Assembly (NCBI GenBank): GCA_016296775.1
Contig: JAEDIE010000002.1
Coordinates: 7,958 to 71,957, forward strand
Direction: 5' to 3'
Source: Bacilli bacterium
GTDB taxonomy: Bacteria; Bacillota_I; Bacilli_A; RFN20; CAG-826
Length of the DNA stretch: 64,000 nucleotides
In this document: positions 40,296-56,866 of the stretch, piece by piece
How the letters are laid out: every line of letters starts with the position of its first letter
How positions within the stretch are numbered: position 1 is the stretch's first letter
The notes under the pieces: generated by a model
Seen by the model: the letters and a program-made list of their open reading frames with translations, nothing else
What the model was told of the DNA's origin: nothing
Database searches by the model: none
Position numbers and translations under genes: made by a program

Positions 40296-41105
40296 ATGGA
40301 AATTAAAAAAATACATGATCAACACGTACATACATCCTATTCAGAAGATTCATCAGCTAATTTAGAGAAATATATTCAAATAGCTATAGATTTAGGTTGT
40401 TCTTATTTTGTTATGACTGATCATTTGGATTTTGATATTCCTATGTATCATGAACATTGGATAGCTGATTATGATGAACAAAAGAAAGAAATTATTGAGT
40501 TACAAAAGAAATATAAAAATAAAATAACATTACTTCAAGGAATTGAATGTGGATATAGAGAAGGATATGAAAACAATATAAAAGAGGTAGTATTTCATAG
40601 GGATTTTGATTTAATTAACCTTTCAATACATAACTATTTAGACTTAGATTTTTATTATAAAGAAGATTTTTTAAAGTATGGAATTAATAAAATGGTAAAT
40701 TTATATTTAGAAGCTGCTATTAAAGCACTTGATAGTGATATAGATTTTGATGTTCTTTCTCATATTGATTATGCATTTAAAACAGCTAAACAAATTGATC
40801 CAAATATTAAATTCAATTTATTTGAAAATCAGCTTGTAGTTTTATTAAAAAAATTAATAAATAAAAATAAAACTTTAGAGATAAACACTAAAGTACAAGA
40901 GTCAATAAATGATAAAAACCATACGAAATACTTACTAAATTTATATTATTCACTTGGGGGAAGAAATATCACTATAAGTAGTGATGCCCATGTTGAAAGT
41001 AGATATTTATCAAGATTTGAAGAATATAAACAGATAGCAAAAGAAGAGAATTTTACTTACTTATGCTATTTTATAAAGAGAAAGAAATATTATTTTAATA
41101 TTTAA
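40296..41105 (+). CDS. PHP-domain phosphoesterase (HisJ-family histidinol-phosphatase-like)
   Basis: 269 aa with the N-terminal HDQHVHTSYSEDS, metal-binding His/Asp spaced as in PHP/HisJ, and a C-terminal SSDAH. Confidence 0.8.
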   Translation: MEIKKIHDQHVHTSYSEDSSANLEKYIQIAIDLGCSYFVMTDHLDFDIPMYHEHWIADYDEQKKEIIELQKKYKNKITLLQGIECGYREGYENNIKEVVFHRDFDLINLSIHNYLDLDFYYKEDFLKYGINKMVNLYLEAAIKALDSDIDFDVLSHIDYAFKTAKQIDPNIKFNLFENQLVVLLKKLINKNKTLEINTKVQESINDKNHTKYLLNLYYSLGGRNITISSDAHVESRYLSRFEEYKQIAKEENFTYLCYFIKRKKYYFNI

Positions 41106-41196: not shown

Positions 41197-42354
41197 ATGA
41201 GAGACAAAAAATTTATTTTAACTCTTTTAGGCGTTAGTTGTTTTGTTATCACATCTTGTAATGGAATCGATAGCAACTCTTTTTTTCCACCTATCGAAGA
41301 GCAAATAACTAAATCAACTAATAATCCATATTCTAATCCAACTTATCCTCTTTTATTTAACGAAAAGAAACCTACCTATACTGCAGATCCATTTGTAATT
41401 AGAGGAGATGATGGATATTTTTACATGTATTGTACTCAAACTGAAGTATATGCAAATCAAGAATATAAGACTTTTAAAAAAGGACCTGTATTTTCTTCAT
41501 ATGATTTAGTCAATTGGGAGTATGTTTCTGATGTATTTAGTAATTACAATCCAGAATGGGGAACAAGTGGGGCAGGAGTTTGGGCTCCAACTGTTATTAA
41601 AGTAGGAAATAAATATAATTACTACTATTCTCTTTCAGTCGGAGAAGATACAAATCCAGGGATTGGTGTAGCAACAGCTGATTATCCTTATGGTCCATTT
41701 ACTCATTATGGAAAGTTATTTAATAGTAATGAAATTGGAGTTACTAATTCTATAGATCCATTTGTTTTATATGATAACGATAAATTATATATGGCTTTTG
41801 GTTCATATGGAGGATTAATTACTATAGTTGAATTAACAGAAGATGGTTTAGATTTAAAAAAAGGAATTGAATATCAAAAAGAACATAAAGTAGCTATTGC
41901 AGGGTTTGAAATATTTAATGTAGATAATTACGAAGGAACATTCATTTTTAAAGAAAAAGATACATATTATTTATTATTATCAACTGGAACATGTTTAAGT
42001 GGATTAAATTCTACTTATAGAGTTGTTTGTGCAACAAGTGATTCTTTATTTGGACCATATAAAGATTCAAAAGGAAGAGATATGTTTGGTCCTAATAGAG
42101 GAGATGTAGTTGTAGCTCCTTCTTTAAGTACAGCTATGGGTGTAGGGCATTGTGCTGTTATTCAAGATGATGCTTTAAATTATTGGATGATTTATCATGG
42201 ATATGACACTATTGATAATAGTTCTTATCGTTCATTATATTTAGATCAATTATTATTTGATCCTGAAACAAAATTACCTTCAGTAAGTGACCATGTAGCA
42301 AGCAATCACGAAACTAAAAACGGTCCTTACATTAATAGTTTGGAGAATAAATAA
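41197..42354 (+). CDS. Secreted GH43 glycoside hydrolase lipoprotein (arabinanase-like)
   Basis: 385 aa with a lipobox at VITSC. The GH43 triad context is present: TADPFVIR (base), NSIDPFV (pKa modulator) and NYEGTF (acid). Confidence 0.85.
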   Translation: MRDKKFILTLLGVSCFVITSCNGIDSNSFFPPIEEQITKSTNNPYSNPTYPLLFNEKKPTYTADPFVIRGDDGYFYMYCTQTEVYANQEYKTFKKGPVFSSYDLVNWEYVSDVFSNYNPEWGTSGAGVWAPTVIKVGNKYNYYYSLSVGEDTNPGIGVATADYPYGPFTHYGKLFNSNEIGVTNSIDPFVLYDNDKLYMAFGSYGGLITIVELTEDGLDLKKGIEYQKEHKVAIAGFEIFNVDNYEGTFIFKEKDTYYLLLSTGTCLSGLNSTYRVVCATSDSLFGPYKDSKGRDMFGPNRGDVVVAPSLSTAMGVGHCAVIQDDALNYWMIYHGYDTIDNSSYRSLYLDQLLFDPETKLPSVSDHVASNHETKNGPYINSLENK

Positions 42355-43532
42355 TGAAAAAATTAGCTTCTATATTCATGCTTATTTCTGTTCTTTCTTT
42401 ATCATCTTGTCAATCATCAAATAAAAATGATGTGGGAAATGATAGTAATATTACAAAAAAAGAATATATAAGAGAGAAATATTCTAATCCTTTAAATTTC
42501 TATAAAGTTGATGGATCAAAATATGATGTATATTGTGCTGATCCTGATGTTATTAGATGCGATGAAGATAATTATTATTACATGTATTGTACAAATACAG
42601 ATTGTGAAATGGGTGAAAAAGGTATTATGTATGATCGTTCACCCATCTTTAGAAGTAGAAATCTAGTTGATTGGACTTGGTGTGGTAGTGTTTTTGATGG
42701 ATTAGAAAATGCTGCTAATTGGGGAACAAAAGATGCTGGTGTTTGGGGTCCTTCAGTAATTAAAGTCGGTAATAGATATAATTATTACTATGGATTATCA
42801 ACATGGGGCGATCCTAATCCTGGTATTGGAGTAGCAAGTTCTCCAACTCCTTATGGACCATGGGTAGATCATGGAAAAATACTTGATTCAGTTGATAGCG
42901 GAGTTAAAAATTCAATTGACCCTCAAGCATTATATGTTGGAGATAAATTATATTTAGTATGGGGTTCATTCTTTGGAATAGGAATAATTGAACTTACTGA
43001 AGATGGATTGGAACCATATGTAGGTAGTACAAATTTAAAAGAATATACAAAATATATTATTAAAGACAATACAACTGATGGAATAATGGATGTAAATATT
43101 AACTATGAAGGTAGTTATATAGTTCAAAAAGATAATAAATTCTATTATTTTGGTTCACAAGGAACATGTTTAAGCGGAACAAATTCAACTTATAAAGTTA
43201 AAGTCGGAGTCAGTGATTCTATTTTTGGACCATATAAAGGATCAGATAACTTTGAATTAGATGATAAAAACGGTTCATTTGGTGATTTAGTTGTTTCACC
43301 TAGTAGTGAAGTTGCTGGAACTGGACATAATACAATTATTAAGGATTTTGATGGAAGATATTGGATTTTATATCATGGATATCATATTAATGGAAATCTT
43401 CCAGAATATCGTATTCCATTTTTAGATGAACTTACCTGGAGCGAAGAAACATCAATGCCTTTTGTTAAAGGTAATAATGCATCAATTAATGAAGAAAAAT
43501 TGGGACCAACAATTTTAAAATATAAGGAGTAA
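42354..43532 (+). CDS. Secreted GH43 glycoside hydrolase lipoprotein, paralogue of the upstream gene
   Basis: 392 aa with a lipobox at LSSC, plus CADPDVIR, NSIDPQA and NYEGSY. It is collinear with the upstream protein. Confidence 0.85.
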   Translation: MKKLASIFMLISVLSLSSCQSSNKNDVGNDSNITKKEYIREKYSNPLNFYKVDGSKYDVYCADPDVIRCDEDNYYYMYCTNTDCEMGEKGIMYDRSPIFRSRNLVDWTWCGSVFDGLENAANWGTKDAGVWGPSVIKVGNRYNYYYGLSTWGDPNPGIGVASSPTPYGPWVDHGKILDSVDSGVKNSIDPQALYVGDKLYLVWGSFFGIGIIELTEDGLEPYVGSTNLKEYTKYIIKDNTTDGIMDVNINYEGSYIVQKDNKFYYFGSQGTCLSGTNSTYKVKVGVSDSIFGPYKGSDNFELDDKNGSFGDLVVSPSSEVAGTGHNTIIKDFDGRYWILYHGYHINGNLPEYRIPFLDELTWSEETSMPFVKGNNASINEEKLGPTILKYKE

Positions 43533-43536
43533 ATTT

Positions 43537-45024
43537 ATGAAAAGAAGTAAAATTTTAACTGTTTTATCGATCGTTTCATTATTTGGAGGTTTATTTTCTT
43601 GTTCAAGTGGAAGTAACACTGAAGAAGTAAATGACATTGTAAGAGATGGTAATGGATCAATAGTTTATAACAATGTTGAATTAAAGTTATGGAGCGTTAC
43701 AACTGGAGAAGATGCTTCTACTCAAGATGCAATTATTGGTAATTTTAATTCTTTATATGAAGGAATGATTCATGTCACAACAGAACACATTTCTCGTTAT
43801 GATTTAGAATCTAGATTAACTTCTACCATGAGTTTTGATAAGAAAAATGCCCCAGATGCATTATTTACACATGGACATAGAACAAATGAATACATTGGAA
43901 ACGAATGGATTCAACCCATTGAAGATTACTATACAATGAGCGATACTCCTTTAGATAAATCAGATTTTGCTCCAAGTTTATTAAATACAGTTACACATAA
44001 TGGAAAAATGTATTCTACTCCAATTGATGTTCATTCAACAATGATTGAAATTAGAACTGATATTTTAACTAAAAATGGGTTATCAATTCCTTCAAATTAT
44101 AACGAACTTGTTAGTGTTTGTACTCAAGCTACTGAATTAGCAGCTAAAGGTAATTTATGGATTAGAGGTGAAAATAGTGAAGGATATGCTAGTGATGAAT
44201 GGAGAAAAGCTACAACAGCTGAAGCATATACTCCTTTCCCAATCTCATATGGGGATATGTGGGTCCATGAATTTTTAGGATATACTGCTGCTGTTCAAAA
44301 TGGTGGAAAATTTCTTACCGAAGATGGAAAGGGTATGCCAGGATGGAACAGTGATGAAGTTGCTAATGGTTTACAAGTTTTAAGAGGTTGGATTTTCCCA
44401 ACTTCAACTTCTAAAAATAAATATCAATTAAGCTTAGATTATGGATCAGATTATGATGTAGGTATCGAACCATTTAAGAGCGGAAAATCAATATTTAAAT
44501 TAAATGGACCATGGGTCTATAAAACAGATTTAGATTCTTTCTCAACCATGTTAAGAAACGATGGAGGAGATAATAACATTACAACACGTAGTTTATCCAA
44601 TATGTTAACTAGTGATACTTCAACTGAATATGCTTCAAAAATTAAAGGTGAAGGTCATGCAATTATGTTAATGTCAACTGTTGAAAGTGCTACAAAAAAA
44701 TGTGCTGCAAGTGTTTTTGCTGATTATATGGCATATTATTCAGGAATTGAATGGGCAAGAAGAGGACATATTCCTGCAGTAAATTCTGTATTAAATAACA
44801 ATGATTTTAAAGGCGATGCCGACTATACAAAATATATTCAATATTGGGGAACACCAAACGATTATGAAGTTTATGGTCCAACTCAATACTACTCATATAT
44901 TGATACATATTTTAAAAATTCATTACAAAAATCAATAGCTTCTCAATTTAAAAACACTCCAATTAAAGAAATTTTGGATGAACAATATAAAGGATGTAAA
45001 GCATATATAGAACTTTATGCATAA
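43537..45024 (+). CDS. ABC sugar transporter, extracellular solute-binding lipoprotein
   Basis: 495 aa with a lipobox at LFSC. Its position ahead of two permeases and its size and composition fit family-1 SBPs. Confidence 0.8.
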   Translation: MKRSKILTVLSIVSLFGGLFSCSSGSNTEEVNDIVRDGNGSIVYNNVELKLWSVTTGEDASTQDAIIGNFNSLYEGMIHVTTEHISRYDLESRLTSTMSFDKKNAPDALFTHGHRTNEYIGNEWIQPIEDYYTMSDTPLDKSDFAPSLLNTVTHNGKMYSTPIDVHSTMIEIRTDILTKNGLSIPSNYNELVSVCTQATELAAKGNLWIRGENSEGYASDEWRKATTAEAYTPFPISYGDMWVHEFLGYTAAVQNGGKFLTEDGKGMPGWNSDEVANGLQVLRGWIFPTSTSKNKYQLSLDYGSDYDVGIEPFKSGKSIFKLNGPWVYKTDLDSFSTMLRNDGGDNNITTRSLSNMLTSDTSTEYASKIKGEGHAIMLMSTVESATKKCAASVFADYMAYYSGIEWARRGHIPAVNSVLNNNDFKGDADYTKYIQYWGTPNDYEVYGPTQYYSYIDTYFKNSLQKSIASQFKNTPIKEILDEQYKGCKAYIELYA

Positions 45025-46000
45025 AGAAGAAACTAAAAATATTTCAATTGAATTAGTTGCTAGAAGAGAAAAAACAAAAAATAACCTAAGAAAAACAAGT
45101 CTTTTAGGAATGTTCTTAGGTCCATATGGAATTTGTTTCTTATTGTTTTTTGCTTTTCCGTTAGTTTTAGGAATAATAATGTCATTTTCTACTTTTGATG
45201 GAAAATCATTATTTCCTAGTGGATTTGCAGGTTTTGATAATTACATTAAGTTATTTACAAATGAAGTATTATCTAAAGACTTCTGGTCTAGTATTTGGAA
45301 TACAATTAGATTTGCTTTAATTATTGTTCCTTTATCAATTATTATTCCTTTAGGTTTAGCTTTATTAACCAGTTTAAAACCTCCAGGATATAAGTTTTTT
45401 AGAGCTTGTATTTATCTTCCAGGAATCTTTCCTTTAACAGCAACTGGTTTAATTTTATTAAAGATGTTTGCATTTAGAGGTGGATTTATTAATTCAGTAT
45501 TTAATATTTCAATTGACTGGTTTGGTGATGTTGGAGCCTGCTGGTTTATGATTGGTTTATTCTGTTTATGGTGTGGAATTGGTGGCAATTTCATTATTCT
45601 TTGTGCTGGTTTAGAAAACGTTGATAAATCATTATATGAAGCTGTTAATATTGATGGCGGAAATAAAATTCATAGGTTTTTCCACGTTACTTTACCAGGA
45701 ATATCTTCTCAATTATTTTTATGTATTTTTACGACATTTACTGGATATATGAACCTTTATGGTCAAGTGTATATTTTAGGTACAGGTGTAGCTGATCAAG
45801 ACGAGATGATGACTGCAGTTTATAGAATTCAAAACTTCTTACTTGGTAGTTCAAAAAGCTATGGATATGCTGCAGCAATGGGCATTTGTTTAGGTGTTTT
45901 AATTATAATTATTGCCATTATTCAAATGGTTGTTTCAAAAGAAAGAAGAGGAAACGGAAAGCATGCAAAGGCGTTCGAAAAATACAAAAAGAGTAAGTAA
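45017..46000 (+). CDS. ABC sugar transporter permease (MalF/BPD_transp_1 type)
   Basis: 327 aa, multi-TM, with the EAA-loop region YEAVNIDGGNKIHRFFHVTLP. Confidence 0.88.
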   Translation: MHKEETKNISIELVARREKTKNNLRKTSLLGMFLGPYGICFLLFFAFPLVLGIIMSFSTFDGKSLFPSGFAGFDNYIKLFTNEVLSKDFWSSIWNTIRFALIIVPLSIIIPLGLALLTSLKPPGYKFFRACIYLPGIFPLTATGLILLKMFAFRGGFINSVFNISIDWFGDVGACWFMIGLFCLWCGIGGNFIILCAGLENVDKSLYEAVNIDGGNKIHRFFHVTLPGISSQLFLCIFTTFTGYMNLYGQVYILGTGVADQDEMMTAVYRIQNFLLGSSKSYGYAAAMGICLGVLIIIIAIIQMVVSKERRGNGKHAKAFEKYKKSK

Positions 46001-46856
46001 AACTATTGCTTTTATTATTCTTTTAATTGTTTCAATAATAGCATTAATTCCAATTGTTTGGGGTGTTTTTGGTAGTTTTAGAAGTTATGAAGATTTCTTT
46101 ACTAATTCTAGTTCGTTCTTCCCTTCATCTTGGGATAAATTTACATTAGATGGATATAAAGAGTTATTTTCACACACAACATATAATGAAGCTGATGCAA
46201 ATGTTTACTATCCAATTTGGAATTGGTTATTAAATTCTTTAATTGTTTCAATTGGGGGAACATTACTCTATTTAGTTATTGCATCTTTAGCAGCATATGC
46301 TTTTGTCTTTTTAGATTTTAAATATTCTAATGTAATATTCTATTTTCTAATTGGAACCATGACTATTCCAGGAGTTATTTCAACTACTCCTCAATTAATA
46401 AATATGAATATGTTGCATGCATATAAAAATCTTTTAGGTTTAATTATTCCAAGTTTAGGTGGGGTTTACGGGTTATTTTTAATCAGACAATTCTTCTTAT
46501 CTATTCCTAAAGATTTAGTTGAAAATGCAAGAATGGATGGAGCAAGCAATTTTAAAATCTTCTTAACTATCGTTCTTCCTTTAGGAAAATCAGCTTTATT
46601 TGTTCAAGGTTTATTCGGATTTATGGGAGCATGGAATGATGTTCAATGGGCACAACTTATTATTGGAAATGCTCCAAGAACAACTTGGACGTTAGCATAT
46701 GGATTAAAAGTTATAGCAGATAACACAGAAAGCATTGAATCTATTACATTAGCTTTAGCAAGTGCAGTTATTACTATGATTCCTATATTAATTGTGTATT
46801 TATTTGCTCAATCAAAGATTATTGAAGGTGTAGCTAATACTGGTATAAAGAGGTAA
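45963..46856 (+). CDS. ABC sugar transporter permease (MalG type)
   Basis: EAA loop at ENARMDGASNFKIFLTIVLP. The start is set at the internal ATG (MQRRSKNTKR) rather than 45912. Confidence 0.88.
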   Translation: MQRRSKNTKRVSKTIAFIILLIVSIIALIPIVWGVFGSFRSYEDFFTNSSSFFPSSWDKFTLDGYKELFSHTTYNEADANVYYPIWNWLLNSLIVSIGGTLLYLVIASLAAYAFVFLDFKYSNVIFYFLIGTMTIPGVISTTPQLINMNMLHAYKNLLGLIIPSLGGVYGLFLIRQFFLSIPKDLVENARMDGASNFKIFLTIVLPLGKSALFVQGLFGFMGAWNDVQWAQLIIGNAPRTTWTLAYGLKVIADNTESIESITLALASAVITMIPILIVYLFAQSKIIEGVANTGIKR

Positions 46857-46861
46857 GTTTT

Positions 46862-48253
46862 ATGGGTAAAAATAATGATGTTTATATTAATGAAAAAATA
46901 AGTTCATTTATTTGTTTAGAACACGTAGATAAAATTTATGCTAATGGTGTTAAAGCTGTACATGATTTTTGTTTAGATGTTGATAAAAATGAGTTTGTTG
47001 CATTAGTTGGTCCTTCAGGATGTGGTAAATCAACAACATTAAGAATGATTGCTGGATTAGAAGATATAAGTAATGGAAATTTATGGATAAATAAAGCATA
47101 TGCTAACTATTTACCTAGTAAAGATAGGGATATTGCTATGGTTTTCCAAAGCTATGCCCTATATCCAAATAAAAATGTATACGATAATATTTCATTTGGC
47201 TTGAAAATTAGACATGTTGATAAAAAAGAAATTGAACAAAGAGTATTTGAAACAGCCGAAATTTTAGATTTAGGTCACCTTTTAGATAGATTCCCACGTG
47301 AACTTAGTGGAGGTCAAATGCAACGTGTTGCTTTAGGTAGAGCTATTGTTAGAAAAGCTAATATCTTCTTGATGGATGAACCATTATCTAACCTTGATGC
47401 TAAATTAAGAGTTCAAATGAGATGCGAAATCGTTAGAATTCATAGAGAAGTAAAAGCTACAACAATTTATGTTACTCATGATCAAACTGAAGCTATGACT
47501 ATGGCAACAAAAATTGTTGTTATGAATAAAGGATTTATTCAACAAATTGCTAAACCAATGGAAGCTTACTTAAATCCTAATAATTTATTTGTTGCTACAT
47601 TTATTGGTTCACCTTCTATGAACATCTTTGAAGCTAAATATAATAAAGGAAAAATTACTCTTCCAAATGGCACTAGTTTTAAAATTGATGCAGGAATTCA
47701 TAATGAATTTTATACTAAAAGGTTAGAAGAACTTAATAATATTTTAGATAATTTTGATGAATTTGGATTAGAAGAAATGAGAAGAATTGAATCTAATCAA
47801 CCATATATTAAAGGTGAAAAAGTCGTAAAGGTAGAAAAGAAAAAGAAATTCCAATGGTTGATTAATTTAATTAATAAAAAGAAAATTGAAGAAGAAAAAG
47901 TTAGAACTAGAGAAGAAATGAGGAAAAAGATCGAGCTTTATAGGGATAATGCTCTTCATGCTTTAGAAAATGAACATCCTCTTTATATAGGTATTAGACC
48001 AGAACATTTCTTCTTAAATGAAGATTTTAGAGGTTGTAAAAAATCTGATAGCTTTAAAGTCAAAGTTAATATGATTGAGCTATTAGGTAGTGAATATATT
48101 ATTCATACAAATTTAGATGATAAGAAACTTCAAATCAAATTGAATGGACTTGTTAGTGTTAAAGAAGAACAAGACGTAGATGTCTGTTTTGATGAATCAT
48201 TAGTTCAAATATTTGATATTGATAGCGGATTATCGTTAAGGAGGGAAAAATAA
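46862..48253 (+). CDS. ABC sugar transporter ATPase (MsmX/MalK type) with an enlarged C-terminal regulatory region
   Basis: 463 aa with the Walker A GPSGCGKST, the signature LSGGQMQR and the Walker B IFLMDEPLS. The TOBE-like C-terminus is interrupted by a K/E-rich insert of about 90 aa. Confidence 0.92.
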   Translation: MGKNNDVYINEKISSFICLEHVDKIYANGVKAVHDFCLDVDKNEFVALVGPSGCGKSTTLRMIAGLEDISNGNLWINKAYANYLPSKDRDIAMVFQSYALYPNKNVYDNISFGLKIRHVDKKEIEQRVFETAEILDLGHLLDRFPRELSGGQMQRVALGRAIVRKANIFLMDEPLSNLDAKLRVQMRCEIVRIHREVKATTIYVTHDQTEAMTMATKIVVMNKGFIQQIAKPMEAYLNPNNLFVATFIGSPSMNIFEAKYNKGKITLPNGTSFKIDAGIHNEFYTKRLEELNNILDNFDEFGLEEMRRIESNQPYIKGEKVVKVEKKKKFQWLINLINKKKIEEEKVRTREEMRKKIELYRDNALHALENEHPLYIGIRPEHFFLNEDFRGCKKSDSFKVKVNMIELLGSEYIIHTNLDDKKLQIKLNGLVSVKEEQDVDVCFDESLVQIFDIDSGLSLRREK

Positions 48254-50091
48254 TGAGAAAAAACTTCAAAACATGTTTAACCTTAGCAGCTACTTTATTA
48301 GTTGGTTTAGGAAGTATTGCAGTTACAAGCTGTAACGGAAATGGTGATACTAATACTTCTACAAGCCAATATAAGGTTGTAATTAATGCTATTGGTTCAA
48401 CAACAATCAATCAAAGTAAAACTCTTCAATTAAGAGCTAACGTTACCGGAACAACAGACAAAAACGTCACATGGAGTTCAAGCGATGAAACTATCGCTAC
48501 AGTTAATGAAAGAGGTGTTGTAACCGGAGTTAAAGAAGGTAAAGTAAAAATTAGAGCAACATTAAATATCGATTCAAACGCTTATGGAGAAATTGAAGTT
48601 ACTGTTTTAAGAAGTGCTCTTCCTACATCTTTAACAATTCAAGGTATTGAATCAGGATTAAAATGGATCGGTGATAAAGCAACATTATCAATTAAAGTAG
48701 AACCTGAAGATGCAAGTAGTTTAGTTACATGGTCAACATCAAATGATAAAGTTGCAACTATTTCTGAAGCAGGTGAACTTGAATTTATTGGAGAAGGTGA
48801 AGTTAAAATTTCTGCTACAAGTAAAGATGATGCAACAGTTTCAGCATCATTAGATTTTACAGTTAAATTTGGTACATTTAGTGCAACAATGGGTTCTCCA
48901 AACTGGGATATTTCTAAACAAGCAGATGATACAAAGAAGGAAGTTTCTTTATCTGAAGAAGGTGGAAAAGGATATAATACTCTTTACTTTACACATTCAA
49001 AAGGAACAAGATACTATGCTGAAGCTTACTTTAAAGTTCCAACAATTGTTATGGACTATACTTGGGCATGGCAAGGTGTTGGTTTAGGAAGTGGATTAAG
49101 CGATACAAATACAAGATATTTCACATTTAGTCCTCACTCACCAGCTACTCCAGAAAATTCATTTCATAAGACAATTGTTAGAGATAGACCTACAAGCTGG
49201 GACGCTTTAACAACACGTTCTCAAATTTGGGGTGAAAATGGTCTTGATGAAATTGATGTAATTAATACTGGTGTTAAAGTTGGTTTATTAAGAGATGAAA
49301 ATAAATACTATTACCTACTTAATGATCGTTTGTTCTATGTTGATGAAACAACAAAATATGACCAAGTAGAAACATATCCAATTCTTGTAGCTGAAGATTT
49401 ACCTGTTAAAGTTACAGACTTTAGTTCAACTACAGATGAAGAATATATTAATAATTTATTAAATAGCGCTACATTTAAGAAATCATTCTTTGCAAGTAAT
49501 CCTAATATTGTTAACTACGAAAGCGATGCAAGATTCTCATTTGATTCAAATACAGTTTTAAGTAAAGATAATAAAGTTAGATCTTTAGGTGATAAAGCTA
49601 AAGTTACAAGAAATTTTGAAGTTGAATTCGATTTATCATTATTAGACTTTAATAATTCTCATATTTCTAGAGGATTCACTGGTATGACTCTTAACTTCAC
49701 ACGTTATGATTCTGCTGATGCTGTTGAATCTATGATGATTGGAAGAAGCTCGATTCAATCAGAAAATACTAACATTATTGGAAGATATGCAAGTTGGAAT
49801 TATCAAAAATCAATGGATGATCCAACTAGTATTTCTAAATATTTAGAAAGTAGTGCAGCTGTTATGGCTAATCCAAACGATAAAGTACATGTAAAAGTTA
49901 CACGTACTTTAGATGAAAATAATAGAAGTAATTTTGCTTTATATGTTGATGGGGATTTAGTTGAATTAGATGTTAAATCTTCCTCAACAGTTTTAGCTCA
50001 AGAAAGATACACTGGAGCATACCTCATTTGGGTTGGTGGTGAATACACTGCAGGACAAGTTGAAAATTTTGTTTTCAAAAACTTAGATTAA
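48253..50091 (+). CDS. Surface lipoprotein: 2 Big_2 (bacterial Ig-like) domains plus about 400 aa of uncharacterised beta-rich C-terminal region
   Basis: 612 aa with a lipobox at VTSC. Big_2 signatures are present (TLQLRANV...VTWSSSDETIATVNERGVVTGVKEG, VTWSTSNDKVATISEAGELEFIGEG). The C-terminus has no motif I recognise. Confidence 0.7.
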   Translation: MRKNFKTCLTLAATLLVGLGSIAVTSCNGNGDTNTSTSQYKVVINAIGSTTINQSKTLQLRANVTGTTDKNVTWSSSDETIATVNERGVVTGVKEGKVKIRATLNIDSNAYGEIEVTVLRSALPTSLTIQGIESGLKWIGDKATLSIKVEPEDASSLVTWSTSNDKVATISEAGELEFIGEGEVKISATSKDDATVSASLDFTVKFGTFSATMGSPNWDISKQADDTKKEVSLSEEGGKGYNTLYFTHSKGTRYYAEAYFKVPTIVMDYTWAWQGVGLGSGLSDTNTRYFTFSPHSPATPENSFHKTIVRDRPTSWDALTTRSQIWGENGLDEIDVINTGVKVGLLRDENKYYYLLNDRLFYVDETTKYDQVETYPILVAEDLPVKVTDFSSTTDEEYINNLLNSATFKKSFFASNPNIVNYESDARFSFDSNTVLSKDNKVRSLGDKAKVTRNFEVEFDLSLLDFNNSHISRGFTGMTLNFTRYDSADAVESMMIGRSSIQSENTNIIGRYASWNYQKSMDDPTSISKYLESSAAVMANPNDKVHVKVTRTLDENNRSNFALYVDGDLVELDVKSSSTVLAQERYTGAYLIWVGGEYTAGQVENFVFKNLD

Positions 50092-50140
50092 AAATATATA
50101 GGATTTACATATGTTTTTGAAAAAATAATGAGGAAATAAT

Positions 50141-51895
50141 ATGAAAAAATCTAAAATAATTTGGGCTTCTATATTAATAGGAACATTAGGTATTGGATTA
50201 GCTGCATGTAATCCAAGCGGACCTTCTGTTAAGTTAGAAGTTGAAATCGAAATCACTTCTACTACAACGACAGTTATGGCTGGAGAAACTTTACAACTTA
50301 GTGCAGAAGCTAAAAATGGTAAAACAAACGAGGTTTCATGGTCAAGCAGTGATACAAATGTTGCTACAATTGGTGAAGCAACTGGTTTAGTTACAGCTTT
50401 ACGTAGAGGTACAACAACAATTACTGCTACAGCTGTTGATGATTATACAAAAACAGCAACAGTTGTTATTACTGTTAATGATTTAAGCCCTGAATCAATT
50501 ACAATTTCTGGTTATAAATCAACTACTCTTCGTTCACATTCAACACTTCAATTAAGCGCAACTGTTTTGCCAAGTGATAAAATTCAAACTATAAGTTGGA
50601 AAACAAGCGATCCTAATATTGCTACAGTAAGTGAAACAGGCCTTGTTAGTTTTGTTGGTGAAGGTGAAGTTACAATTAGTGCTGTTTCTACAGCTAACGA
50701 CGAAGTTAAAGGTGAAGTTAAGTTTAATCCTTACTATATTGTCTCATCATTCTGGGGAAACGAAAGCTGGGATTTCAGTGGTCTTCATGGAATGGAACCA
50801 ACATTTAAGAGCAAAAATTCATCAATTAATCAAAATGCTGTTTTAAATAATTCAACTGGAAAATACTATGCTTTTGAAGCAACAGCTAAAATCACAGACC
50901 CTTCAACATCTGATACATGGTCAAGAGTAGGATTAGGACATATTCCTACAAATAATAGTGATAAAATCCACGCTTTAATGGTTTCTCCTGGACCAAATTT
51001 TAGTCAAAGAAAAACAGTTGTCATGGATGTTGTTAAAGGCAATGTTCAATGGGGTACAGTAACTGATAGATCTCAAGTATGGGGTCAACATGATCAAAAT
51101 GTAATTGATTATAGTAACGTAAAACTTTCTGCCGTTAGAAACGGAAACGATTACTATTATTTCATTAATAATGAATTATATTGGGTTGAAAAAGATTTTA
51201 ATGAATTTAGTGATGTTGATACATATCCAGCATTCCATACCGGAAATACTAATGTTGAATTTTCTAAAATTAGTGTAGTTACAGGTGAAAAAGAAGTTCA
51301 AACTTATCTTGCAAATAATCCTACTTCTAATAATTATTACTATGCAACTTATAAAGATAATGTTGTAGTAGATAAAACTAATAATACAATTAAGTTTATT
51401 AATTGTGAAAACGGTGTAACCACCAATGTTAAAGATCAAGCTATTAAACCTCTTGGTAGTGCAATGTTATTAAAAGATAAAACAAATACTAAGATTTCAT
51501 TTGATTTTACATTAGATTTAATTGGAAATCGTGATGCAAATCCTGCTTTAGCTATTACTGTTACTAGATATGATTCTTCAACTTGGGAAGCAAGAAGTGG
51601 TGTAATTTGTGAAACAAAAGCTGGATTTACTGGATGGAATTCAAATGGTGATTTAAATGCTGGTATTGGAGATGGTGGAAGAGAATATACTACTCCTTTA
51701 CTTGAAGGTCAAACATATCATGTTGATTTTTATAAATTATCAAGTACATCAACTGGAACAGATACAAGACTTGTAGTTAATGGTGTTGATTATGCTCATG
51801 GTTGGGATGATGGATATCATGGTGCACATACATTTATGATTGGTACACGTGATATGAACGTTACAATCACTAACTTAACAGTTACACAAGAATAG
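50141..51895 (+). CDS. Surface lipoprotein, paralogue of the upstream gene (2 Big_2 domains plus an uncharacterised C-terminal region)
   Basis: 584 aa with a lipobox at LAAC, plus VSWSSSDTNVATIGEATGLVTALRRG and ISWKTSDPNIATVSETGLVSFVGEG. The C-terminus is collinear with the upstream protein (RSQVWG, YYYFINNELYWV, VTRYDSS). Confidence 0.7.
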   Translation: MKKSKIIWASILIGTLGIGLAACNPSGPSVKLEVEIEITSTTTTVMAGETLQLSAEAKNGKTNEVSWSSSDTNVATIGEATGLVTALRRGTTTITATAVDDYTKTATVVITVNDLSPESITISGYKSTTLRSHSTLQLSATVLPSDKIQTISWKTSDPNIATVSETGLVSFVGEGEVTISAVSTANDEVKGEVKFNPYYIVSSFWGNESWDFSGLHGMEPTFKSKNSSINQNAVLNNSTGKYYAFEATAKITDPSTSDTWSRVGLGHIPTNNSDKIHALMVSPGPNFSQRKTVVMDVVKGNVQWGTVTDRSQVWGQHDQNVIDYSNVKLSAVRNGNDYYYFINNELYWVEKDFNEFSDVDTYPAFHTGNTNVEFSKISVVTGEKEVQTYLANNPTSNNYYYATYKDNVVVDKTNNTIKFINCENGVTTNVKDQAIKPLGSAMLLKDKTNTKISFDFTLDLIGNRDANPALAITVTRYDSSTWEARSGVICETKAGFTGWNSNGDLNAGIGDGGREYTTPLLEGQTYHVDFYKLSSTSTGTDTRLVVNGVDYAHGWDDGYHGAHTFMIGTRDMNVTITNLTVTQE

Positions 51896-51905
51896 TTATA
51901 AAGTA

Positions 51906-51937
51906 TATAAGCATTCGGGTTTTTCCGAATGCTTATA
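51906..51937 (+). promoter_or_regulatory. Perfect 13-bp-stem intercistronic hairpin without a U-tract
   Basis: TATAAGCATTCGG-gttttt-CCGAATGCTTATA lies 11 nt after the stop at 51895 and 20 nt before the GH36 start. Confidence 0.5.
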
Positions 51938-51957
51938 ACAATAGGTAGGTAATCTAT

Positions 51958-54144
51958 ATGAAAATTGAATTTAGTAAGGAAAAACATATTTTTTCTATAA
52001 CAACCGAGAATCTAGCTTATTATTTTTCTATTACAAATAAAGGTATTTTAAAGCATCTATATTTTGGAGAATATATTGAAAGTATTGATGATGAATTAAT
52101 AAGTGATATTGGTTTTGATTGGGCTAAAACTTATTTTGATAAAAACGAATTAAAAGAAAAAGAATATGATGATAATTTTTATCATGATAGAAGCTTTTTA
52201 GAAATTGGAACTCACGGATTAAAAGATAATAGACCATCAAGTTTTGAAATTGAAGTTAATGGAAATAATAAGGTAGATTTTCGTTATGTAAATCATCGAA
52301 TTTATAAAGGAAAACCTATGTTAAATGGATTACCTCATTTTAAAGGAGATGAAAAAGATTCATTAACCTTAGAGATTACTTTAAAAGATGTTGTAAAAAA
52401 CATTTATTTAGAATTAAGTTATACAGTTATCGAAGGTATTGATTGTGTTTTAAGAAACTCGAAAATTATTAATAAAGAAAAAGAATGTAAAGTTGAAAGA
52501 GCCATGTCTTTAACTCTAGATTTACCAAGTGATCAATATAATTTAATCTCTTTTCCAGGAGATTGGAGTAATGAAAGAAATATAAATAAAGATAAAATTT
52601 CTTTTGGAATGAAAAGAATTTCTTCTAAATTTGGAAGAAGTGGACACGAACAAAATCCTTTCATGATTTTAGAAAAGAGTGAGGATTTAATAGGGTTTTT
52701 ACCTTCATACATAGGAATTTCATTTGTATATAGCGGTAATTTTGTTGAAGAAGTAAGTGTTGATAAAAATAAAACTACTAGAGTAAATATTGGAATAAAT
52801 GATGAAGATTTTTCATTCACTTTAAAAGAAAATGAAGAATTTGTTCTTCCTGAAGCTTTGTTAGTTTATTCTTCTTCTTTTGATGGATTAACTCAAAATA
52901 TACATGATCTAATTAGAGATCATTTAATTGATAGAAATCATTTAGATACTCAAGACAAGATTTTATTAAATTCTTGGGAAGCTTGTTATATGGATTTTGA
53001 TACTGAAAAAGTTATTAAATACATTAACGAAGCTAAAAAATTAAATGTTGGCTTATTTGTCCTTGATGATGGTTGGTTTGGAACAAGAAATAATGATTTA
53101 TGTTCATTAGGTGATTGGTATATTAATGAAGGTAAAATTAATTTAAGAAAAGTAGTTGATGAATGCCACAAAAACAACATGAAATTTGGTATTTGGTATG
53201 AACCAGAAATGATTAATCCAGATAGCGATTTATTTAGAAAACATCCAGAATTTATTGTTGGTGATATTTCTAAATATGATTTAGGTTTATCGCGTCATCA
53301 ATTAGTATTAGATTTCTCTAATCCTGTCGTTGTTGATAATATTTTTAATCAAATGTGTTCATTATTAGATAAATATGATGTTGATTACATTAAATGGGAT
53401 CACAATAGATGTCTTTATGATGCATATAGTTCATATTTAGGTTATGAAAATATTGGTAAATTCTTCCATGAAAACATTAAAGGAGTATATTCTTTACTTG
53501 CTAGATTAAAAGAAAGATATCCAAATATCTTATTTGAAGGATGTGCAAGTGGAGGAGGAAGATTTGATTTAGGAATGTTATATTACACTCCCCAAATTTG
53601 GACAAGCGATGAAACCGATCCTGTTCAAAGAATGTTTATTCAATATTCAACTAGTTTAATTTATCCTCTTTGTACAATGGGAAGCCATATTTCCAAAAAC
53701 CCAATAACAAACTATTTAACTAAAGGAAATGTTGCTTTATTTGGTACTTTTGGATATGAATTTGATCCTTTAAAAATTAATGAAGAAGAAAGAAAAGAAG
53801 TAATTATTTCTAGTGAAAATTATTTAAAACATCATAAACTTATTAAAAATGGTGATTTATATCATTTATATTCTCCTTTTGATACAAACTTTATGTGTAT
53901 GGAAGTAGTAAGTAAAGATAAGAAAGAGGCTATTGTTTTATTTACTAATTTAATTAAAGTTCGTAATACTTATAGAATGTTAAAACTTAAAGGTTTAGAT
54001 GATAATAAATTATATAGAAATTCATATAATAACAAAGTATTAAAAGGATATTTATATAAAAATGTAGGCATTAATTTAACAAGATGGTTTGATGAATTTT
54101 CATCTTTACTTATCTATTTGGAGGAGGTAAATGATGAAAACTAA
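51958..54144 (+). CDS. GH36 alpha-galactosidase (cytoplasmic)
   Basis: 728 aa with no signal peptide. The GH36 motifs DYIKWDHNR (nucleophile region) and EGCASGGGRFD are present. Confidence 0.88.
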   Translation: MKIEFSKEKHIFSITTENLAYYFSITNKGILKHLYFGEYIESIDDELISDIGFDWAKTYFDKNELKEKEYDDNFYHDRSFLEIGTHGLKDNRPSSFEIEVNGNNKVDFRYVNHRIYKGKPMLNGLPHFKGDEKDSLTLEITLKDVVKNIYLELSYTVIEGIDCVLRNSKIINKEKECKVERAMSLTLDLPSDQYNLISFPGDWSNERNINKDKISFGMKRISSKFGRSGHEQNPFMILEKSEDLIGFLPSYIGISFVYSGNFVEEVSVDKNKTTRVNIGINDEDFSFTLKENEEFVLPEALLVYSSSFDGLTQNIHDLIRDHLIDRNHLDTQDKILLNSWEACYMDFDTEKVIKYINEAKKLNVGLFVLDDGWFGTRNNDLCSLGDWYINEGKINLRKVVDECHKNNMKFGIWYEPEMINPDSDLFRKHPEFIVGDISKYDLGLSRHQLVLDFSNPVVVDNIFNQMCSLLDKYDVDYIKWDHNRCLYDAYSSYLGYENIGKFFHENIKGVYSLLARLKERYPNILFEGCASGGGRFDLGMLYYTPQIWTSDETDPVQRMFIQYSTSLIYPLCTMGSHISKNPITNYLTKGNVALFGTFGYEFDPLKINEEERKEVIISSENYLKHHKLIKNGDLYHLYSPFDTNFMCMEVVSKDKKEAIVLFTNLIKVRNTYRMLKLKGLDDNKLYRNSYNNKVLKGYLYKNVGINLTRWFDEFSSLLIYLEEVNDEN

Positions 54145-54991
54145 TGAAATTGTTTTAAGAGATCCTTTCATTTTATTAGATAAAAAATCTTCTACATACT
54201 ATATGTATGGAACTAATAACGAACTTGAGATTGGTTTTTATTGTTATTATAGTAAGGATTTAAATGAATGGAATGGTCCTGTTAAAGTGTTTTGTCCTCA
54301 AAATAATTTTTGGGGAACACAAGATTTTTGGGCTCCTGAAGTTCATATTTATAAAGATAAATATTATTTAATTGGATCATTTAAAAGTTCTACTAAATGT
54401 AGAGGATGTCAAATTTTAGTTTCTGATAGTCCTCTTGGTCCTTTTAATGTACATAGTGGAGTTGTTACTCCTTCTGAGCGGGAATGTTTAGATGGAACGT
54501 TATATTTTAAAAGTGATAAACCTTATTTAATTTTTGTTCATGAATGGCTTCAAATTAAAGATGGAGAAATTTGTGTTGTTGAATTAAGTAAAGATTTAAC
54601 AAAATATATTGGAACACCAAAAACCTTGTTTAAAGCAAGTGAAGCTAATTGGTCAAAACATCCTGCTTGGTATAAAGAACCAATTAATGTTTGTGATGGA
54701 CCATTTGTAGTTAAAGATCAAAATGATTTCCCGCTTATTTTATGGTCTAGCTTTCTTGAAGATTCTTATGATATTGGATATTCATATAGCGACGTAGATA
54801 TATTTAGCAATAAATATATTCATTCTAAAAATCCTTTACCTATTAAAGATGCAGGACATGGCATGATCTTTGAAGATTTGAACAATAAAAAATATTTAGT
54901 ATTACATGCTAATAATTCAGCTTCAGGTCATGAATACCCTGTCTTAATACCGGTAATTATTAAGGATAAACAGATAATTTTGGAGAATTAA
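54131..54991 (+). CDS. Small cytoplasmic GH43-family protein
   Basis: 286 aa with no signal peptide, plus LRDPFILLD...YYMYGT, FWAPEV and CLDGTLYF. The general-acid position reads CDGPF rather than xEGPx. Confidence 0.7.
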   Translation: MMKTNEIVLRDPFILLDKKSSTYYMYGTNNELEIGFYCYYSKDLNEWNGPVKVFCPQNNFWGTQDFWAPEVHIYKDKYYLIGSFKSSTKCRGCQILVSDSPLGPFNVHSGVVTPSERECLDGTLYFKSDKPYLIFVHEWLQIKDGEICVVELSKDLTKYIGTPKTLFKASEANWSKHPAWYKEPINVCDGPFVVKDQNDFPLILWSSFLEDSYDIGYSYSDVDIFSNKYIHSKNPLPIKDAGHGMIFEDLNNKKYLVLHANNSASGHEYPVLIPVIIKDKQIILEN

Positions 54992-54992
54992 A

Positions 54993-55889
54993 ATGAAAAA
55001 GAAAATTTTTGCATTTATGATTTTGCCTAGTTTATTAATGTCTTGTGGAAGTGCAAATTCAAATGGAAGTAATGATGACCCTCAAGATAATAAAGTTCAA
55101 GTTGTTTTAATGTTAGGCCAATCTAACATGGAAGGTCATACTCATTCACAATATTTATTAAATACTAAGGGCGAAGATAAGTTTAAAGAGTATGGAAAGG
55201 GATATGAAGATATCAAAATTTCATATCGTTGCTCAATTAATTTTAACGATTCAAATGGTCAATTTGTTGATGTTAAATTAGGACAAGGAACGAATATTGA
55301 AAGATTTGGACCAGAAATTGGAATAGCCGAAACATTACATGGAAAAGATTTTAAAAATAAAGTAATGCTTGTTAAGTTTGCTCAAGGAGCAACTTCTTTA
55401 TATAACCATTGGATGTCTCCAACTAGTGGTAGAAGTGGTCAATTATATACTTCATGTTTAGAATACTTCACCATGTGTATGGAAAATCTTGAAAGTCAAG
55501 GTTACTATCCTGAAATTAAGGCTATTTGTTGGATGCAAGGAGAAGATGATTCTAGTAGCTCAGAATATCATAAATATGAAACATTAGAAGAAAACTTTAT
55601 TAATGATTTAAGACAGGATTTAGCATATTATTCAACAAGTGAAGGCATATTTTTTATTGATGCTGGTATTTCAGATTGTGTTGCTTGGACACATCATATA
55701 GAGGTTAATAAAGCTAAATTAAATAATTCTAAAAAGAGTGATTTAAATATGTATTTTTCAACTATTGAAAATGGTTTAAAATATAACTTAGAACCAGTGG
55801 GTTCTCCTGATATATATCATTATGACTCAGATTCAATGATTAAATTAGGTAATTTATTCGGAGAAATGCTGTTAACAATTTTAAAATAA
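54993..55889 (+). CDS. SASA/DUF303-type carbohydrate O-acetylesterase lipoprotein
   Basis: 298 aa with a lipobox at LMSC, the signature VVLMLGQSNMEGH, WMQGEDD, and a C-terminal His (DIYHYDSDS). Confidence 0.75.
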   Translation: MKKKIFAFMILPSLLMSCGSANSNGSNDDPQDNKVQVVLMLGQSNMEGHTHSQYLLNTKGEDKFKEYGKGYEDIKISYRCSINFNDSNGQFVDVKLGQGTNIERFGPEIGIAETLHGKDFKNKVMLVKFAQGATSLYNHWMSPTSGRSGQLYTSCLEYFTMCMENLESQGYYPEIKAICWMQGEDDSSSSEYHKYETLEENFINDLRQDLAYYSTSEGIFFIDAGISDCVAWTHHIEVNKAKLNNSKKSDLNMYFSTIENGLKYNLEPVGSPDIYHYDSDSMIKLGNLFGEMLLTILK

Positions 55890-56866
55890 TGAATAAAAGA
55901 GTATCAATGAAAGACATAGCAACAGAATTAAATATTTCTGTTGATGCAGTTTGTAAAGCTTTAAATGATTCACCAAGAATTAGTAAAAAAACTAAGGAAA
56001 TGGTTAATTTAAAAGCTAAAGAACTTGGATATATTAAAAACACAAGTGCTTCTAATTTAAAGACAGGAAGAACTAATTTTATTGCTGTTTTTATAAACTC
56101 TTTTTTAAATCCTTATTTTGCTGTTGTTACTACTAAGTTGTTTCAACAATTAAAAAAGAAGGGATTTATTGGAATTCTTTGTTTTTGTGATAAGCATGTT
56201 TTAACTGCTGATTATCTTCAACAAGTATTTACTAATAACTGTGAAGCTGTAATTTCTTTGGTTGAACCAGCTGAAGATGTTGTTAGCTTGCTTGATGAAA
56301 ATAACGTCGAACTTTATGTATTGGGTATTAGATGTGAAAATAATAAAGTTAATTATGTAGTTACTGATGATTATGATGGTGGAAGATTAGTTGGAAAAGA
56401 ATTTAAAAAAGGAAATTATAATAAAGCAATGTTTGTTACAGATTCTTTATCTGGAACTAGTGATATTAGAGAAAAAGGATTTCTTGATGAATTAAAAGAT
56501 GTGAGAAATAATAGGGTTTTTGTATTAAAAGACAATCCAGAAACCGATATGTCTAAGGAAGTTATTAAAATGATTGCTAGAGAAAACATTGATTTTATTT
56601 TCTGTTTTAGTGATTATTTAGCTAATAAAGTTAGAAGATGGATCCTTTCATTTGATAATATTATTTATAAACGTACAAAAATTGTTGGATATGATTATAT
56701 TTATCATTATTCAGATTCTTATGAAGAAATTAGTTCAGTTGGTTATAGCATTAAAGAGCTTTGTAATAGTGCTTTAGATGATTTTATTGAGAAAAGAAAC
56801 AATAATATTTCTAGAGAGAATAAGATTAAAAAAGTCATTCCGGTTAAATATTATAACGTTCAATAA
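55889..56866 (+). CDS. LacI-family transcriptional regulator
   Basis: 325 aa with the N-terminal HTH VSMKDIATELNISVDAVCKALNDSPRISKKTKEMVNLKAKELGY and a periplasmic-binding-protein-like C-domain. Confidence 0.9.
   Translation: MNKRVSMKDIATELNISVDAVCKALNDSPRISKKTKEMVNLKAKELGYIKNTSASNLKTGRTNFIAVFINSFLNPYFAVVTTKLFQQLKKKGFIGILCFCDKHVLTADYLQQVFTNNCEAVISLVEPAEDVVSLLDENNVELYVLGIRCENNKVNYVVTDDYDGGRLVGKEFKKGNYNKAMFVTDSLSGTSDIREKGFLDELKDVRNNRVFVLKDNPETDMSKEVIKMIARENIDFIFCFSDYLANKVRRWILSFDNIIYKRTKIVGYDYIYHYSDSYEEISSVGYSIKELCNSALDDFIEKRNNNISRENKIKKVIPVKYYNVQ

Follow-up and report, generated by a model that had tools for sequence, protein, structure and literature searches.

Two adjacent genes in the middle of a polysaccharide-utilization operon of a Bacilli bacterium (contig JAEDIE010000002.1) encode paralogous lipoproteins, here called Lp1 and Lp2. 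We propose, with a probability of about 0.62, that they are non-catalytic surface glycan-binding lipoproteins of an ATP-binding cassette (ABC)-type polysaccharide locus and that their role resembles that of SusE and SusF in Bacteroides. The proposal draws on the architecture and predicted fold of the proteins, on the other proteins that carry their first C-terminal module, and on the conservation of the operon. All coordinates refer to the window, the whole stretch of 64,000 nucleotides that was analysed.

Architecture and paralogy of Lp1 and Lp2

The genes and their parts are listed below, with protein positions in amino acids (aa). D1 and D2 denote two consecutive modules in the C-terminal part of each protein.

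48253-50091, plus strand: Lp1 gene, an open reading frame of 612 aa with a lipobox cysteine, two Big_2 domains, D1 and D2
48253-48333, plus strand: Lp1 signal peptide and lipobox AVTS-C27, read from the sequence, with a conserved cysteine column
48364-48864, plus strand: Lp1 Ig-like spacer of two Big_2 domains (about aa 38-204; Pfam PF02368, E 7e-22)
48865-49440, plus strand: Lp1 D1 (aa 205-396), predicted concanavalin-A-like (ConA-like), CBM66-like beta-sandwich (AlphaFold2, Foldseek, conservation, galectin-3 mapping)
49480-50088, plus strand: Lp1 D2 (aa about 410-612), predicted second beta-sandwich (AlphaFold2 two-domain model, Foldseek, hhalign, distribution)
50141-51895, plus strand: Lp2 gene, an open reading frame of 584 aa, a paralogue that shares the architecture of Lp1
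50141-50209, plus strand: Lp2 signal peptide and lipobox GLAA-C23, read from the sequence
50729-51280, plus strand: Lp2 D1 (aa 197-380), placed by alignments, with the same invariant residues as Lp1 D1
51323-51892, plus strand: Lp2 D2, approximate boundaries placed by alignment, strongly diverged from Lp1 D2

Both signal peptides end as bacterial lipoprotein signals do (SIAVTS-C27 in Lp1, GLAA-C23 in Lp2). The lipobox cysteine column is at least 90% conserved in an alignment of 92 homologues, and a lipobox-like motif lies within the first 45 aa of 164 of 188 homologues. Each protein then has two stretches of Big_2, scoring 77.6 bits in Lp1 and 84.5 bits in Lp2 (E 5e-24), where the Pfam gathering cut-off for PF02368 is 22.8 bits. 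Lp1 and Lp2 share 28% identity over 497 aa by BLASTP (E 3e-41), a paralogy far above chance. They are collinear across D1 and into D2, and the alignment weakens beyond Lp1 residue 488, within D2. The Lp1 start codon shares one nucleotide with the stop codon of the preceding ATPase gene and follows an AAGGAGG ribosome-binding site. This overlap, together with the good ribosome-binding site, suggests that translation of Lp1 is coupled to that of the importer genes.

The pair was first described by a model that saw only the sequence and its open reading frames. The coordinates, lengths and strand given in that original prediction are exact for both genes, and the four motif pairs that it matched between the proteins all occur in their translations. 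Its lipobox cysteine and two Big_2 domains per protein were borne out by sequence and Pfam, and its collinear paralogues by the BLASTP alignment. It had also been unable to assign the C-terminal regions to any family, and profile searches of Pfam and the PDB fared no better.

These regions are the final 408 residues of Lp1 and the final 388 residues of Lp2; residue numbers such as W69 below count within the C-terminal region. Lp1 and Lp2 have no Pfam match at E<=1 beyond about residue 200, the C-terminal regions of 22 family members have none at E<=10, and NCBIfam holds nothing for the C-terminal regions. Neither phmmer nor a family profile matched a PDB sequence apart from spurious matches at E>1, and the profile found no chain of carbohydrate-binding module (CBM) family CBM66 among PDB sequences at E<=10. 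PF06439 (DUF1080/3keto-disac_hyd) is absent from Lp1 and Lp2 at E<=1 and from the 22 family members at E<=10. The Pfam galectin family (Gal-bind_lectin) matches neither Lp1 and Lp2 nor the 22 family members nor the D1 modules. The Pfam families of SusE and SusF do not appear among the Lp matches even at E<=10, so no sequence homology was detected. Pfam gave nothing consistent on 41 D1 modules collected for a broadened profile; PF06439 matched 1/41 at E 0.021. In these Pfam and PDB profile searches, no characterised CBM or glycoside hydrolase (GH) family claims the C-terminal regions at family level, as expected of the candidate new family in the original prediction. A literature search on CBM66, GH43, lipoproteins and ABC systems found no description of the Lp family.

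Fold, distribution and conserved residues of D1 and D2

Residues 205-612 of Lp1 were modelled by AlphaFold2 from a 92-sequence alignment with a mean predicted local distance difference test score (pLDDT) of 96.2 and a predicted template modelling score of 0.93. The model is all-beta. Its first block, D1, covers about residues 1-190 of the C-terminal region and its second, D2, about 206-408, with short helices between them. Comparison of the two-domain model with the PDB gave 285 Foldseek matches at E<=1e-3, every one of them ConA-like. They include BT3469, LamG pairs (Gas6, laminin, neurexin), tandem galectins, clostridial neurotoxin binding domains and CBM66. The original prediction had guessed at two jelly-roll or concanavalin-like modules from the alternating hydrophobic pattern, and the model and the Foldseek matches agree with it.

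The best two-domain match is BT3469 (PDB 4JQT; E 1.6e-9), with a template modelling score (TM) of 0.27. Like Lp1 and Lp2, BT3469 and other DUF1080/PF06439 proteins combine tandem ConA-like sandwiches in a gut-bacterial protein, but the TM of 0.27 indicates a different domain arrangement and the Lp family lacks PF06439. BT3469 was abandoned as a functional guide given this score and its status as an uncharacterised structural-genomics protein (PMC6560043).

D1 modelled alone reached a pLDDT of 95.9. Its first-ranked Foldseek match is CBM66 (4b1m/4b1l/4azz), with TM 0.62-0.71 (normalised by target), 10-12% identity and a root mean square deviation of about 4.7-5 A over about 165-195 superposed columns. 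The next structural neighbours are the L-type lectins VIP36 and ERGIC-53, calreticulin, and the beta-sandwich domains of GH43 and GH32 enzymes. An internal duplication giving D1 and D2 was ruled out (hhalign probability 4%). The C-terminal region is thus modelled as two ConA-like beta-sandwiches with no detectable sequence relation to each other. Of these, D1 most likely represents a candidate CBM-like family with no sequence representative in Pfam, NCBIfam or the PDB.

Word-indexed searches with the two C-terminal regions retrieved 112 and 76 clusters, nearly all of them lipoproteins that share this architecture and are about 520-670 aa long. The source names of the clusters are nearly all absent or 'hypothetical protein', the sole informative one being 'Mollicutes bacterium'. 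An exhaustive profile search with the D1-D2 alignment against 1.84 billion representatives returned 221 proteins at E<=1e-3. Among the matches listed, the D1-D2 pair is limited to the lipoprotein family and a small number of fused doubles, and D2 is seen only alongside D1. Solo D1, in the same set, is present in large Firmicute proteins, most of them lipoproteins, which reach 4795 aa and have 1-9 copies each. When 24 solo-D1 proteins were scanned with Pfam, D1 was found together with GH43 (three proteins), SASA (one), a GDSL esterase (one), a PF00756 esterase (two) and a CBM9-like domain (one). These partner enzymes belong to the same families as the enzymes of the present operon. Such a distribution is classic for a putative non-catalytic carbohydrate-binding module.

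The double-length lipoproteins P0189-P0193 have the order D1-D2-spacer-D1-D2 and no internal signal peptide. P0191 and P0192 join an Lp1-like D1-D2, Ig-like spacers and an Lp2-like D1-D2 in a single lipoprotein, and the lack of an internal signal peptide shows that these are true fusions; in P0189 and P0190 both halves are Lp2-like. Among Lp2 homologues, divergence is greatest in P0187 and P0188 (about 31% identity), which lie within the same gene cassette. P0188 has no detectable Big_2, so D1-D2 is the constant part of the family and the stalk is variable.

A separate observation concerns the giant surface proteins P0226, P0233, P0236, P0242 and others, which reach 4795 aa with up to nine tandem D1 copies and no Pfam-recognisable domains. 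They are an unannotated class of repeat proteins in Firmicute metagenomes.

Only G73, W112, R143, G145, Y149 and N153 are conserved throughout 183 D1 copies. They are predicted to form the core of the fold, part of which is the R-x-G-x-x-Y-x-x-x-N hairpin that characterises ConA-like and LamG domains. A second set, comprising W69, S89-P90, K102 and the loop T116-x-R118-S119-Q120-x-W122, is invariant or nearly so in both the Lp1 and the Lp2 lineage and variable in solo D1. Retained in both paralogue lineages and not in solo D1, this set agrees with a ligand site specific to the family and not with the fold core.

The broadened D1 profile was compared with sugar-binding domains of known structure. 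Its best sequence-level match is the galectin-3 carbohydrate-recognition domain, which has the same superfold (E 7e-6 to 1e-4 over about 85 residues, strands S4-S6; marginal). CBM66 follows (E about 6e-3, about 20 bits, about 135 residues; also marginal), and then GH32 beta-sandwich domains (E 0.06). The resemblance of D1 to galectin-3 and CBM66 appears to be only superfamily-level. The sugar contacts of galectin-3 are H158, N160, R162, N174, W181, E184 and R186, with W181 stacking on the sugar. Mapped through the profile, W181 falls on the identical W112 of D1, and N160-P161 of the HFNPR motif falls on S89-P90. The E184-R186 segment maps to L115 to T117, from which the conserved T116-W122 loop runs on directly. 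The galectin contacts His158, Arg162, Asn174, Glu184 and Arg186 are not kept; D1 has the family-specific T-x-R-S-Q-x-W loop instead. By alignment, the family-specific patch would occupy the canonical sugar-binding face with a chemistry of its own.

The same fold raises the question of catalysis. Lp1, Lp2 or both might be non-canonical enzymes that carry out the initial extracellular cleavage of the polysaccharide, for instance a lyase or a hydrolase (a new glycoside hydrolase or one of the 3-keto-glycoside type) with a ConA-like fold as scaffold. Catalytic ConA-like jelly rolls are known (GH16, PL7, DUF1080), the D1 Foldseek matches contain one GH16 porphyranase, and BT3469, the top two-domain match, was deposited as a 'putative glycosyl hydrolase'. 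D1 moreover keeps R118, Q120, K102 and Y149, and D2 keeps the near-invariant D235 and D256, located on different structural elements. However, BT3469 is an uncharacterised hypothetical protein (PMC6560043), and no family member matches PF06439. D1 has no invariant or near-invariant Asp or Glu and no motif of the ExDxxE type found in GH16-type ConA-like hydrolases. It behaves as CBMs do, as an accessory repeat of up to nine copies joined to genuine GH43 and carbohydrate esterase catalytic domains, and surface enzymes (two GH43s and an esterase) are already present in the cassette. We regard an enzymatic role as unlikely. Because D1 lacks an invariant acidic residue and recurs as an accessory module on GH43 and carbohydrate esterase enzymes, a non-catalytic role in glycan capture is probably the correct one.

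A conserved cassette surrounds Lp1 and Lp2

The remaining features of the operon are as follows.

41197-43532, plus strand: GH43a and GH43b, surface-lipoprotein GH43s (Pfam; lipoboxes VITS-C in GH43a and LSS-C in GH43b)
43537-48253, plus strand: ABC importer, with a lipoprotein solute-binding protein (SBP), two permeases and a MalK-like ATPase (Pfam SBP_bac_8, BPD_transp_1 twice, and ABC_tran with OB_MalK and TOBE_2)
43537-45024, plus strand: SBP, lipobox LFS-C
51906-51937, plus strand: perfect 13-bp hairpin directly after Lp2, no U-tract (RNA dG -22.7 kcal/mol, z -6.0)
51958-56866, plus strand: downstream genes for cytoplasmic GH36, cytoplasmic GH43c, lipoprotein SASA esterase and LacI regulator (Pfam)
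54993-55889, plus strand: SASA esterase, lipobox LMS-C

The locus (41197-56866) runs in the order GH43a, GH43b, SBP, two permeases, ATPase, Lp1, Lp2, GH36, GH43c, SASA, LacI. The best PDB relatives of GH43a and GH43b are endo-1,5-alpha-L-arabinanases, which are distant (E 1e-17 to 1e-23). GH43c has a close relative in PDB 5c0p (E 3e-61), an entry deposited as 'endo-arabinase' for which no paper was found in the literature. GH36 is a canonical alpha-galactosidase of the AgaA/AgaB/AgaSK type (E 1e-144). SBP and SASA have no close solved relative that would indicate their ligand.

Six operon products are lipoproteins, namely GH43a, GH43b, SBP, Lp1, Lp2 and SASA. Such a signal peptide is missing only in GH36, GH43c and the protein of an upstream PHP-domain gene. 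The original prediction had placed Lp1 and Lp2 in the slot between the ABC importer and cytoplasmic hydrolases. Their position is as it described, but the word cytoplasmic suits only GH36 and GH43c; the two upstream GH43s and SASA are surface lipoproteins.

Related loci were found in 31 species-representative genomes, all of them uncultured gut metagenome-assembled genomes. Their labels include Bacilli, Mollicutes, Firmicutes CAG:449, Ca. Alloenteromonas and Ca. Limadaptatus, along with a few evidently mislabelled bins, and the named host genera are 'incertae sedis' in the NCBI taxonomy. The order GH43a-GH43b-SBP-permease-permease-ATPase-Lp1-Lp2-(GH36)-GH43c-SASA-(LacI) is collinear in practically all loci with sufficient flanking sequence and in about 25/31 species genomes. 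One Lp1-type gene is always followed by one Lp2-type gene, so the duplication is older than the divergence of these species. No Lp copy was found outside the cassette in the genomes examined. The survey of homologues that had been proposed along with the prediction thus shows them always with GH43 and ABC genes, in the 31 species-level genomes and for the most divergent homologues alike. A strong GC-rich hairpin stands at the position after Lp2 in 24/27 related loci, with unrelated sequences. It may mark a conserved transcript boundary or a difference in stability between the surface and uptake genes and the cytoplasmic genes.

The order RFN20, including family CAG-449, one of the host lineages, is without sortases (PMC10868615). 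Lipid anchoring is then the available route for surface display in these bacteria.

The constancy of the cassette bears on two further explanations. Lp1 and Lp2 might serve as adhesins, attaching the cell to plant particles, mucus or host cells, and have no part in supplying the transporter. Big_2 repeats with a distal lectin fold do resemble intimin/invasin-type adhesins, there is a weak intimin match through Big_2, and the giant solo-D1 surface proteins (up to 4795 aa) look adhesin-like. We consider it improbable, given that in every genome examined the genes lie strictly within the cassette, between the ATPase and the cytoplasmic glycosidases. The overlap of the Lp1 start with the ATPase stop and the absence of copies elsewhere also argue against it, and adhesion to plant glycans could in any case coexist with nutrient capture. 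Just as improbable are structural or accessory subunits of the ABC importer that use lectin folds for protein-protein contacts, for instance in docking or stabilising SBP or enzymes at the surface. In favour of such subunits are the translational coupling with the ATPase gene, the restriction of D2 to the Lp family, its divergence between the paralogues and the frequent protein binding of ConA-like, LamG and SPRY folds (Gas6-Axl, neurexin and TRIM SPRY are among the Foldseek matches). Against them, D1 also occurs on multidomain carbohydrate-active enzymes (CAZymes) without such a transporter, its conserved Trp aligns with a sugar-stacking Trp, and scaffolding could coexist with glycan binding, as in the Bacteroides utilisome.

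Several other features of the region were observed. The PHP-domain gene upstream (40296-41105) was rejected as a cassette member because it is absent from all 31 related loci. The MalK-type ATPase (46862-48253) is unusually long at 463 aa, with a Lys/Glu-rich insertion of about 95 aa (about aa 280-375) between OB_MalK and TOBE_2. At 469 and 486 aa, its homologues in loci L033 and L035 are long as well, which makes the added length a conserved feature of this cassette. The second permease reading frame (45912-46856) is listed with a TTG start that overlaps the first permease by 89 nt; its true start is probably further downstream. The window as a whole has 28% G+C and reads cleanly in genetic code 11. 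Its sole match at the Rfam gathering level is a bacterial small signal recognition particle RNA (RF00169, 66.8 bits) at 576-671 on the minus strand.

Proposed role and comparison with known systems

If Lp1 and Lp2 are glycan-binding proteins, they would be lipid-anchored through the N-terminal cysteine and spaced off the membrane by the Big_2 stalks, presenting D1 and D2. D1 would bind glycan on the face equivalent to the galectin/CBM66 site, using W112, S89-P90, K102 and T116-x-R-S-Q-x-W122. Together the two proteins would capture a plant glycan at the surface, one containing arabinose and probably alpha-galactosylated and acetylated, of which Lp1 and Lp2 may recognise different features. The GH43a and GH43b lipoproteins and SASA would cut and deacetylate this glycan at the surface, and the lipoprotein SBP and ABC permease would import the oligosaccharides. 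Cytoplasmic GH36 and GH43c would complete degradation, with LacI regulating the operon.

Lp1 and Lp2 are old, always adjacent, co-inherited and sometimes fused, from which we infer that they act together. The D1 motif is shared by both lineages and D2 is strongly diverged, which suggests a shared primary site and a differentiated second module. A cassette with GH43, GH36 and SASA and no GH32 argues for a ligand other than the levan fructosyl bound by CBM66.

Several points weigh against this proposal. D2 has no assigned role, and its D235 and D256 could be catalytic or form a structural calcium site. With a canonical SBP in the operon, a need for additional binders is itself presumed. Most of the 24 scanned solo-D1 proteins have only Ig-like spacers or no Pfam domain at all, and no CAZyme domain. 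Galectin and CBM66 are linked to D1 by marginal matches (E 1e-5 to 1e-2, about 11% identity), and of the seven contact residues of galectin just the Trp and the S/N-P pair are matched. The apparent clustering of the conserved residues on one exposed face is read from the alignment.

A variant that gives D2 a function is possible, if doubtful. Lp1 and Lp2 would then form a heteromeric surface platform, in which D1 holds the polysaccharide and D2 docks the lipoprotein GH43s, SBP or both. The result would be a 'utilisome' of the single-membrane, ABC-importer type. It would parallel the SusCD-SGBP-enzyme complexes found in Bacteroides and be built from unrelated parts in sortase-less, wall-reduced gut Bacilli. 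In a sub-variant, D2 would be a new catalytic domain. Under both versions, D1 would be the founder of a new CBM family that is widespread among surface proteins of Firmicutes.

The closest parallel to the proposed glycan-binding role is in the Bacteroidota. SusE and SusF are paralogous Bacteroides lipoproteins whose Ig-like N-terminus is followed by CBM-like domains in tandem; their genes are adjacent and lie next to a transporter. Pfam, the AlphaFold2 model, the lipoboxes and synteny give Lp1 and Lp2 the same architecture and locus position. They are likewise lipid-anchored, with Ig-like spacers and predicted tandem CBM-like sandwiches, are adjacent paralogues next to a transporter, and are apparently non-catalytic. 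The two pairs differ in that no sequence homology between them was detected and in that the host here is of the Bacillota/Mollicutes type with a single membrane. The transporter of the Sus system is the TonB-dependent SusC/D, whereas here it is an ABC importer with its own SBP, and binding by Lp1 and Lp2 is predicted from the genes and the model.

CBM66, the C-terminal levan-binding module of SacC, an exo-levanase from Bacillus subtilis (PDB 4AZZ/4B1L/4B1M), is the nearest fold to D1, and D1 is likewise appended to glycoside hydrolases. The modelled D1 has the CBM66 fold, and Pfam- and PDB-based searches gave no family-level sequence match. CBM66 belongs to a fructan/GH32 context and D1 to an arabinan/GH43-type context, where it stands alone on a lipoprotein and is paired with the unrelated D2. 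Set against Pfam, NCBIfam and the PDB, the Lp proteins combine an undescribed, CBM-like D1 with a private second sandwich, D2, in paired stand-alone surface lipoproteins.

Surface glycan capture is well understood for the Sus-like systems of Bacteroidota and much less so for gut bacteria, Gram-positive or wall-less, that rely on ABC importers. D1 is a candidate new carbohydrate-binding module family. Lacking a representative in Pfam, NCBIfam and the PDB, it currently escapes automated CAZyme annotation in gut metagenomes. The Lp proteins are small, soluble after removal of the anchor and modelled with confidence, which makes the hypothesis inexpensive to test. While conceptually unsurprising, the finding is useful for CAZyme annotation and for the study of glycan capture in uncultured gut Bacilli. 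If the proposal is true, Lp1 and Lp2 would clearly exemplify stand-alone lipoproteins dedicated to glycan binding in an ABC-importer system, conserved across a whole uncultured gut lineage.

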